Sequence record: OP856590.1
DNA from: Escherichia phage Ec_MI-02
Reading direction: 5' to 3' (one strand)
DNA length: 64,000 bases
Below the pieces are notes generated by a model. The model made no database searches and was not told the DNA's origin. It saw only the letters and a list, made by a program, of their open reading frames with translations. Position 1 is the first letter of the stretch; the number at the start of each line of letters is the position of its first letter. Shown piece by piece: positions 7,564 through 8,419 of the stretch. The translations under genes were made by a program, and so were the position numbers.

Positions 7564-7591
7564 TTTATTCTCCTCAGTAGTTGATAGGGTA

Positions 7592-7621
7592 ATAGTATCA
7601 CAACTAAAACCCTATGTAAAC
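7592..7621 (-). promoter_or_regulatory. sigma70/T4-early-like promoter (GTTTAC -35, 18-nt spacer, TACTAT -10, A/T-rich upstream)
   Basis: -35, -10 and upstream A/T tract are identical to the copy at 7922-7951; only the 12-nt spacer core differs. Confidence 0.5.
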
Positions 7622-7633
7622 AACTTTGTGAAA

Positions 7634-7891
7634 TTATTTTAAATCTTCTAATCGTTTCTTCATCTTAGAACCATTTTTAGCAATTTCTCCTGCATCTGAG
7701 CATAATGCTAAAAGTGCTTTAACTTTAGTTTGGTCTCCTTTAAAAGATGAAGGATCGACTGCAGCAGCAAGTTCTTTAATACGAGAGAAAAGACGCTCAG
7801 CTTCAGCTAAAGCCATTCCAAGCTTTACTTCCATACCATGAGAAGATTCAGTAATAGTAGTTTTTGTAGCAAACTCTTTGAAAGTTTTCAT
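7634..7891 (-). CDS. ipI: internal head protein I-like (capsid-targeting sequence)
   Basis: 85 aa; N-terminus MKTFKEFATKTTITE|S resembles the T4 IP capsid-targeting sequence with an I-x-E cleavage motif; located next to 57B as ipI is in T4. Confidence 0.7.
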   Translation of the reverse strand: MKTFKEFATKTTITESSHGMEVKLGMALAEAERLFSRIKELAAAVDPSSFKGDQTKVKALLALCSDAGEIAKNGSKMKKRLEDLK

Positions 7892-7921
7892 TTTATTTTC
7901 CTAATTAATTTTGATGAGATA

Positions 7922-7951
7922 ATAGTATCACTACCTCATCAGCATGTAAAC
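7922..7951 (-). promoter_or_regulatory. sigma70/T4-early-like promoter upstream of the ipI-like gene
   Basis: GTTTAC, 18-nt spacer, TACTAT; the upstream A/T-rich tract overlaps the last codons and stop of 57B. Confidence 0.5.
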
Positions 7952-7963
7952 AACTTTGTGAAA

Positions 7964-8419
7964 TTATTTTAAATCGTCTGCCCAATCGAGTTTAAGAGGC
8001 TCTTTATATTCACGATCTAATACGACCGGAATTTGTACATCACCGCTAAATGATAAGGGTCCAACATTATAAGACAATGTTATATGCGGTGTGTAATCAT
8101 CAAAATCATGTGTAGCACCTAGTGCCCGCGCATACATGTGTCGGCAGCGCAGATATTCAGAATCTAGCACAAGTACAAGAGTCGATCCATCTTGTGTTTT
8201 CCATACTTCTAAATGTCCAGAAGAAGCTACTTCAAAACTTCCGCTTGATGGAACATACGGAACATTTACTCTTGAATAACATATGGTCGAATGAATTTTT
8301 TCTCTAGGAACTGGATTAGGAACACGTAAAGAGCGCTGGAGTTCTTCCAGCGCATCAAGTGTTAATTCTGAAAACTTAGCTGCTACATAAAGACCCGTTG
8401 AAAAGTCTTTAAATTCCAT
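7964..8419 (-). CDS. 57B: conserved hypothetical protein 57B
   Basis: 151-aa ORF immediately downstream of 57A, as in T4. Confidence 0.8.

Follow-up and report, generated by a model that had tools for sequence, protein, structure and literature searches.

Two copies of a putative early-promoter cassette flank the internal head protein gene Ip5 of Escherichia phage Ec_MI-02

Locus and gene order

The window analysed here is a 64,000-nt stretch of Escherichia phage Ec_MI-02 (sequence record OP856590.1). The element under study is a short promoter-like cassette of the minus strand, which is present in two copies, one on each side of the small gene for the internal head protein Ip5. The window belongs to a Tequatrovirus, and the close relatives are EO1, ime09 and RB51. 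The region 6690–8670 shows 98.7% identity to Escherichia phage EO1, and 96–98.6% identity to ime09, Lutter and RB51, all of which are Tequatrovirus. All the genes of this region are located on the minus strand, in the order gp1, 57A, 57B (Acb1), Ip5, tRNA.4, tRNA.3 and tRNA.2, and then the tRNA cluster follows. The genes and the two cassettes are as follows.

8661–9386, minus: gp1, deoxynucleoside monophosphate (dNMP) kinase
8419–8661, minus: 57A
7964–8419, minus: gene 57B, Acb1 anti-CBASS phosphodiesterase (Pfam PF23474, E=2.6e-60); the upstream fixed anchor of the locus, with its last codons within cassette A
7911–7979, minus: cassette A (57B to Ip5), the repeat with its promoter boxes; near-identical to the PE2 region of the T4 record X03016.1
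7634–7891, minus: Ip5, internal head protein gene, 85 aa (phrog_3499 match, RB15 Ip5 match, RB51 annotation)
7581–7649, minus: cassette B (Ip5 to tRNA.4), the repeat with its promoter boxes; equivalent of the T4 early promoter PE1
7378–7563, minus: tRNA.4, predicted membrane protein of 61 aa; the downstream fixed anchor of the locus

The direct repeat

A repeat search of the window detected a direct repeat of 69 nt in two copies, at 7581–7649 and 7911–7979. The two copies are 83% identical, with a spacing of 330 nt. Two such repeats had been reported here by a sequence-only reading, which was made without database searches. The 32-mer ATGTAAACAACTTTGTGAAATTATTTTAAATC within the repeat is present in exactly two copies (7614–7645 and 7944–7975); with up to 3 mismatches allowed, no further copy was found in the rest of the 64-kb window, and 0 of 100 dinucleotide-preserving shuffles gave any copy. 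These results confirmed the repeat and showed that it is not a product of chance.

The second identical block is the 12-nt sequence taatagtatcac (7590–7601 and 7920–7931). The sequence-only reading had found this block in both copies, but gave its length as 11 nt. The 12-nt cores between the two blocks, aactaaaaccct at 7602–7613 and tacctcatcagc at 7932–7943, have 4 of 12 positions in common, which is about the level of unrelated sequence. The cores had been described as completely different. The divergence was reproduced, but the core also holds one arm of an inverted repeat that encloses the −10 box, which had escaped notice. As had been pointed out in the same reading, the repeat encodes D-L-K-stop at the end of both upstream open reading frames (ORFs), 57B (...DDLK*) and Ip5 (...EDLK*). 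A looser similarity carries on through the ribosome-binding site and the ATG of the downstream genes, with an offset of 2 nt.

A further promoter-like element is located at 4232–4318 on the minus strand. It is 57% identical to cassette B, with TTTTCACAAAAC upstream and CTATCAACTACTGA downstream in common, and it is without an inverted repeat. This element may be related to the cassette, in degraded or recombined form.

Promoter boxes of the cassettes

The promoter scan gave the following boxes.

7945–7950, minus: −35 box TTTACA of cassette A
7922–7927, minus: −10 box TACTAT of cassette A, with TGA before the box (extended −10)
7615–7620, minus: −35 box TTTACA of cassette B
7592–7597, minus: −10 box TACTAT of cassette B

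Both copies were called as TTTACA-17-TACTAT with the TG extension. On the minus strand, each copy consists of the upstream stop codon, the A/T-rich tract ATTTCACAAAG, TTGTTTACA, a 17-nt spacer ending in TGA, TACTAT, a short leader, GGAG/AGGA and ATG, in this order. Cassette A thus contains the last codons and the stop codon of 57B, the A/T-rich upstream tract, the −35 box, the inverted repeat and the −10 box. Cassette B heads the genes tRNA.4, tRNA.3 and tRNA.2, upstream of the tRNA cluster. The early-promoter consensus for the PST/T4 pair is TTTACW-N17-TAYWAT (PMC4122927), and the architecture of T4 early promoters is described as 'UP/-35/TGn/-10' (PMC2988021). By sequence match, both cassettes agree with this consensus and with this architecture.

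In the T4 record X03016.1, the orthologous elements are annotated as the putative early promoters PE2 (before ipI) and PE1 (between ipI and ORF2, which is tRNA.4). Each of PE1 and PE2 is overlapped by a 'pot. stem-loop structure', one of which is labelled 'pot. IpI terminator'. This 5-kb record of the T4 tRNA region is presumably that of Broida & Abelson (1985); the record output carries no author names. The window cassettes are near-identical in sequence to T4 PE2 and PE1, and cassette B is identical to the PE1 region from ATTTCACAAAG onward with the exception of 1 nt. The orthologous sites in phage Lutter also carry promoter annotation. From the near-identity to the annotated T4 PE1 and PE2, we infer promoter activity in this phage, as the sequence-only reading had proposed by calling the repeats promoter cassettes.

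The similarity of the two copies might have a simpler origin. Cassettes A and B might be just two strong early promoters, which resemble each other through the promoter constraint on the UP tract, −35, TGn and −10, and take no part in gene exchange. An extended consensus beyond the hexamers is indeed common to T4 early promoters (PMC2988021), and other early-promoter-like sites in the window are 50–57% identical to the pair. However, the perfect identity of 32 nt enters the coding sequence of two unrelated genes (D-L-K-stop), past the promoter constraint. Among the 12 TTTACW-N16-18-TAnnAT sites in the window, the pair is the most similar, showing 70% ungapped identity over 87 nt where the median is 34%, and is a clear outlier. 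In other phages, moreover, the indel edges and the chimeric cassettes described in the next section map within the elements. We consider it very unlikely that promoter constraint is the whole explanation.

Cargo genes and cassettes in other phages

The 57B–tRNA.4 interval was compared between the window and 13 other phages (14 in total). The cargo genes between the two anchors are as follows.

KpV477 (Klebsiella phage): no cargo, one cassette
Window, RB51 and Lutter: Ip5
T4, G2540 and PhAPEC2: IpI
T2: Ip5+Ip7
T6, GiZh and SHFML-26: Ip5+Ip6
RB33: Ip5+Ip9+Ip7
310Ecol104PP: Ip9+Ip7+Ip8
RB15: Ip5+Ip9+Ip7+Ip8

Eight cargo arrangements with 0 to 4 internal-protein genes are present between the fixed anchors in these phages, and n cargo genes are always accompanied by n+1 cassettes. 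As a check, the sequence-only reading had suggested a search for T-even genomes in which these repeats enclose other cargo genes. The outcome is positive, as shown by the arrangements and by indel edges that fall inside the cassettes. Every cargo protein begins with MKT(F/Y)(K/Q)(E/K)F. In the phage collection, the cassette was found at 2352 places in 814 records.

According to the multiple alignment, the window differs from T6 and T2 by the absence of exactly one gene and one cassette, and both edges of the gap are located at ...ACCCTATC inside the cassettes. Cassette B of the window corresponds to the left part of the second T6 cassette joined to the right part of the third. The cassette halves are modular: the upstream tract and the left arm of the inverted repeat go with the upstream gene, and the right arm and the leader go with the downstream gene. 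Three leader types were observed.

Leader type AAATTAATTAGGAAAATAAAATG: before Ip5, T4 IpI and Ip7
Leader type CTACTGAGGAGAATAAAATG: before tRNA.4 and Ip9
Leader type AAACAAAAC...GGAAA..AAAATG: before Ip6 and Ip8

Chimeric cassettes, which carry non-complementary arms of two types, are present between Ip5 and Ip7 in T2, between Ip9 and Ip7 in RB33, RB15 and 310Ecol104PP, and between 57B and Ip9 in 310Ecol104PP. These chimeric cassettes place the crossovers in the shared GTGATACTAT loop.

The same comparison bears on another possible origin, in which an ancient tandem duplication of a promoter plus an internal-protein gene left the repeats behind as passive relics, the coding parts diverged afterwards, and the polymorphism arose by other means such as illegitimate recombination or by transfer associated with homing endonucleases. 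The MKT(F/Y)(K/Q)EF leader common to all the cargo is what duplicates would have, the repeat spacing of 330 nt equals one gene unit, and a segB-like ORF is located about 1.5 kb downstream. The mature parts of the cargo proteins, on the other hand, are unrelated. The three leader types and the two main arm types return in different combinations in independent arrangements, as repeated crossovers in the cassettes would give and a single duplication would not. The gap edges are precise to the cassette, and the co-segregation of the cassette halves with the neighbouring genes favours recombination. An origin as passive duplication relics is judged highly improbable.

The segB-like ORF just mentioned encodes 161 aa (5663–6148, minus). 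It is located at the segB position between two tRNA subclusters, about 1.5 kb downstream of the repeats. The segB-like ORF at the matching place in RB51 is annotated as truncated, and the ORF at 5663–6148 may be a decayed homing endonuclease. In GiZh (KT184311.1), an 11-nt 'possible binding site of StbAB' in the Ip5–Ip6 leader and 'attL; attR' inside gene 1 are annotated at 1680–1690 and 3164–3174. These annotations look spurious.

The cargo gene Ip5

The ORF between the two cassettes matches phrog_3499 'internal head protein' over the full length (E=1.2e-49), and no matching Pfam family was found for it. The protein is 100% identical to Ip5 of RB15 (CAA84462.1, record Z35082.1), and the ORF is annotated as Ip5 in RB51 and ime09. 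The N-terminus MKTFKEF...TITE corresponds to a capsid-targeting leader with an I-x-E cleavage motif (MKTFKEFATKTTITE, with S following the cleavage point). The rule (L/I)-x-E is that of the T4 prohead protease gp21. According to BLASTP, residues 1–22 of Ip5 align with residues 1–26 of T4 IpI, with 14 of 26 residues identical, and nothing aligns beyond them. The ORF had been called ipI-like in the sequence-only reading. Its position and protein class were assigned properly, but the protein is Ip5, and the resemblance to T4 IpI ends with these first 22–26 residues. A homologue of IpI (the GmrSD inhibitor) was considered for this ORF and rejected, as the mature proteins give no alignment and only the leader is common to them. 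The same site carries either Ip5 or IpI as alternative cargo.

In the phage collection, Ip5 was found by tblastn in 494 records, 268 of which show at least 80% identity and 226 of which hold homologues below 60% identity; IpI was found in 286 records. Distant homologues with 47–54% identity adjoin the lysozyme gene e, that is, the other internal-protein (IP) locus (e.g. NC_028925.1 VR25 and MW749001.1 Kelasse). The presence of Ip5 homologues beside gene e in other Tevenvirinae is consistent with the movement of IP genes between the two loci. By the offset to the T4 record, the window appears to start just past the position of this second IP locus (ipII/ipIII). The record PV654520.1, 'Pseudomonas phage vB_PSGBLB0006' (142 kb), carries an Ip5 that is 98.8% identical to that of the window, which is unexpected in a Pseudomonas phage; the record may be mislabelled or contaminated.

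The late-promoter motif TATAAATA is located at 9017–9024 on the minus strand inside gene 1, at the same position as 'PL1' in the T4 record. This motif occurs 24 times in the window against 9.6 expected. A late promoter within the cassettes was rejected, as no TATAAATA is present there and the nearest one on the minus strand is that at 9017–9024. Late expression of Ip5, which a head protein needs, might be provided by read-through from this motif, covering 57A, 57B and Ip5.

Gene 57B, the upstream neighbour of Ip5, is still named 'RNA ligase' in PHROGs and in many RefSeq records, despite the Acb1 match in Pfam. This anti-defence gene directly adjoins the exchangeable internal-protein slot.

The inverted repeat around the −10 box

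An inverted repeat has its 5′ arm in the core that had been regarded as merely divergent, and its 3′ arm just past the −10 box. This is the case in both copies.

7935–7941, minus: 5′ arm TGATGAG of cassette A, inside the divergent core
7912–7918, minus: 3′ arm CTCATCA of cassette A; 7 bp plus G-U pairs here, 10 bp in T4, RB51 and RB33
7609–7615, minus: 5′ arm ATAGGGT of cassette B
7584–7590, minus: 3′ arm ACCCTAT of cassette B

Cassette A is arranged as TGATGAG-[16 nt]-CTCATCA and cassette B as ATAGGGT-[18 nt including TACTAT]-ACCCTAT. The arms are located between the −35 box and about +8 and enclose the −10 box. In cassette A, a C-to-T change shortens the perfect stem from 10 to 7 bp. The RNA hairpins of the two copies have predicted energies of −16.6 and −14.8 kcal/mol (z = −4.3 and −3.6), a level reached by none of 200 shuffles. 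The corresponding DNA folds give −7.7 and −5.4 kcal/mol.

A stricter test was also performed. The spacer and the flank were shuffled, and a perfect inverted repeat of at least the same length bracketing the −10 box was required. The shuffle P of individual cassettes ranges overall from 0.0004 to 0.06, and the arms at this locus in other phages are 7–10 bp long. Their sequences are as follows.

T4, RB51 and RB33: TGATGAGGTA/TACCTCATCA
T6: GATAGGGTA/TACCCTATC
G2540: GATGGAGA/TCTCCATC
PhAPEC2: AGGATGAT/ATCATCCT and GATAGGACTA/TAGTCCTATC

Two other sites of the window show a similar design. At 3894–3980 on the minus strand, an early-promoter-like site (GTTTACA...GATATTAT) directly follows a stop codon and precedes a ribosome-binding site and an ATG. 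Its −10 box lies between the arms of a perfect 9-bp inverted repeat, TAGGCTCAT/ATGAGCCTA (shuffle P ~0.001–0.002). The architecture is like that of the Ip5 cassettes, and the sequence is unrelated. The second site, early-promoter-like as well, is located at 63689–63775 on the minus strand behind the stop codon of the ORF 63745–63999, and an 8-bp inverted repeat, GGTACAGG/CCTGTACC, is located round the −10 box (P ~0.01). The latter site suggests that the design of a promoter with a bracketing stem is general in the genome, beyond the IP locus.

In total, seven different arm sequences are found at the same promoter position: five stem types at this locus in other phages, and two at these other promoters of the window. 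These variant versions give a shuffle P of 0.0004–0.02, and the test result is strong for the 8–10-bp versions outside the two window cassettes. The registers of the arms relative to the −10 box differ among the cassette types, with the result that no single consensus structure fits. The comparison argues that the inverted repeat is a selected feature, because the stem recurs with changing sequence, and not from the window alone.

A terminator scan gave no intrinsic terminator at either cassette, and neither stem is followed by a T-run (U-tract in the RNA). The Rfam scan of 3000–9500 (E<=0.1) gave only the tRNA genes and weak chance matches, with nothing at the cassettes. Since the terminator scan was blank at both cassettes, 'terminator' was not adopted as the role of the hairpin.

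The hairpin might still be the main function of the element, as a terminator, as an RNA-processing site of the upstream gene or as a DNA cruciform, the resemblance to promoters being secondary. The z values of the predicted hairpins, the compensatory variation of the arms across the cassette types and the label 'pot. IpI terminator' in the T4 record agree with this. Promoter-early stem-loops (PeSLs), moreover, are described as composite terminator/promoters (PMC4122927). However, what stays constant in the cassette is the upstream tract and the promoter boxes, whereas the arms vary. The missing U-tract and the blank terminator scan also speak against it, as do the stemless chimeric cassettes that persist in T2, RB33, RB15 and 310Ecol104PP. 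A function centred on the hairpin is judged extremely unlikely.

A further reading, also judged unlikely, is that the inverted repeat, which is kept in at least seven arm versions at one fixed promoter position, goes beyond a by-product or weak terminator and acts as a recombination or regulatory device, for instance as a hairpin or cruciform that targets strand breaks or strand exchange to the −10 loop, or else as an operator. In the former case, a structure formed at promoter melting or replication would account for the crossovers that map to the shared −10 loop. In the latter case, some as yet unknown phage or host factor would shut off the early promoters.

Proposed function of the cassettes

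The two repeats are very probably copies of the T-even internal-protein-locus regulatory cassette, and would provide early promoters together with portable homology for gene exchange. Each cassette would be a strong sigma-70 early promoter of the T4 type, placed between the stop codon of the upstream gene and the next ribosome-binding site, with the −10 box bracketed by the inverted repeat. Ip5 would be transcribed early from cassette A. From cassette B, tRNA.4, tRNA.3 and tRNA.2 would be transcribed, and the transcription would read on towards the tRNA cluster. The inverted repeat would most likely form an RNA hairpin in the read-through transcript of the upstream gene and mark or stabilise its 3′ end, in line with the 'pot. 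IpI terminator' of T4. The hairpins would also form in the late read-through transcript.

With respect to gene exchange, each gene inserted between 57B and tRNA.4 would bring or acquire a cassette, which would result in the n+1 relation. The cassettes would supply identity blocks of 20–45 nt in direct orientation. The homologous-recombination machinery of the phage would cross over in these blocks, and internal-protein genes would be deleted, inserted or swapped with their expression signals intact. The model places the exchange breakpoints in the GTGATACTATTA and ATTTCACAAAGTTGTTTACA blocks. From the breakpoint pattern, and by analogy with the experiments on PeSLs, we infer recombination as the source of the variants.

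Several points weigh against this proposal. All the function assigned here rests on homology. With 32, 12 and ~20 nt, the blocks of identity are short for efficient homologous recombination in T4, for which a published threshold is ~50 bp, and the events would be rare. Taken alone, the two 7-bp inverted repeats of the window are only marginally unusual (shuffle P ~0.03–0.06). A classical intrinsic-terminator role of the hairpin is doubtful, because both cassettes are without a T-run and the terminator scan is empty there. Since chimeric cassettes with broken stems persist in several phages, the stem can be dispensed with. The missing U-tract and the stemless chimeras that survive argue that the inverted repeat is at most a modest 3′-end or stability element. 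It is also termed only a 'potential' stem-loop or terminator in the T4 record X03016.1 and in PMC2839356.

Comparison with known systems

The phage DNA is accompanied into the cell by injected internal proteins, at least some of which counteract host defences: GmrSD is inhibited by IPI, and T4 needs IPIII to infect the E. coli strain ECOR17. A cassette system that swaps these genes with their expression intact would help to explain the rapid host-range adaptation of T-even phages, a point that has been made since 1994.

Gene-cassette arrays of integrons are similar to this locus in that small promoter-proximal adaptive genes are located between short repeated recombination sites, and in that the copy number varies among close relatives. 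Unlike integrons, the locus lacks an integrase, attC/attI site-specific chemistry and a single promoter for all units; each unit has its own promoter. Exchange would here proceed via general homologous recombination between short identities.

PeSLs (RB49/phi1, PST/T4 and nt-1/KVP40; PMC2839356, PMC4122927) are closer to the cassettes. They are also repeated intergenic modules of ~70–100 bp, composed of an A/T-rich tract, an early promoter, a stem-loop, a Shine-Dalgarno sequence and ATG, and small variable genes of hyperplastic regions are located between them. In PeSLs, genes are deleted, inserted or swapped when neighbouring copies recombine, and the same would happen here. Excised mini-circles were demonstrated experimentally for these analogous elements, in RB49 and phi1 only (PMC2839356, PMC4122927). 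As in canonical PeSLs, the window cassettes flank genes that vary from one close relative to another, and the gap edges and chimeric cassettes place the crossovers inside the element. The difference is in the stem-loop. In PeSLs it is located just upstream of the promoter, with the form G(n)-loop-C(n) in RB49/phi1 (PMC4122927), whereas the arms bracket the −10 box here and are A/T-richer and variable. The stem-loop upstream of the promoter that serves canonical PeSLs as the terminator of the preceding gene is not present in the window cassettes. The IP-associated elements are regarded as analogues, not homologues, of PeSLs (PMC2839356).

The closest system is that of the T-even IP-locus elements (Repoila, Tetart, Bouet & Krisch, 1994, EMBO J 13:4181; T4 PE2/PE1). 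According to passages of PMC2839356 and PMC4122927, the presence of such elements at both variable IP loci was noted by Repoila et al. (1994), who put forward a shuffling mechanism within the IP set as a hypothesis. A passage of PMC2839356 describes the elements as based on T4 early promoters, with weaker, A/T-rich stem-loops, and passages of both papers state that they may underlie the plasticity of the two loci. The RB15 record Z35082.1, 'DNA for Ip5, Ip9, Ip7, Ip8', is likewise bounded by 57B and tRNA.4. The comparison with other phages supported the sequence-only reading, whose interpretation by cassette exchange is essentially correct. The idea itself is not new, because the same passages credit it to Repoila et al. 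(1994). Annotation of the feature in T4 dates from the 1980s, and its explanation from 1994 and 2010–2014; the window is another example of it with no new principle.

The window elements show every sequence-level feature of the T-even IP-locus family. The locus and the Ip5 cargo are the same, the sequence is near-identical, and the anatomy of an early promoter with an overlapping potential stem-loop is also the same, as is the role attributed to it in the passages of PMC2839356 and PMC4122927. No substantive difference was found; the window shows the Ip5-only arrangement of this family, with the stem of cassette A shortened by the C-to-T change.

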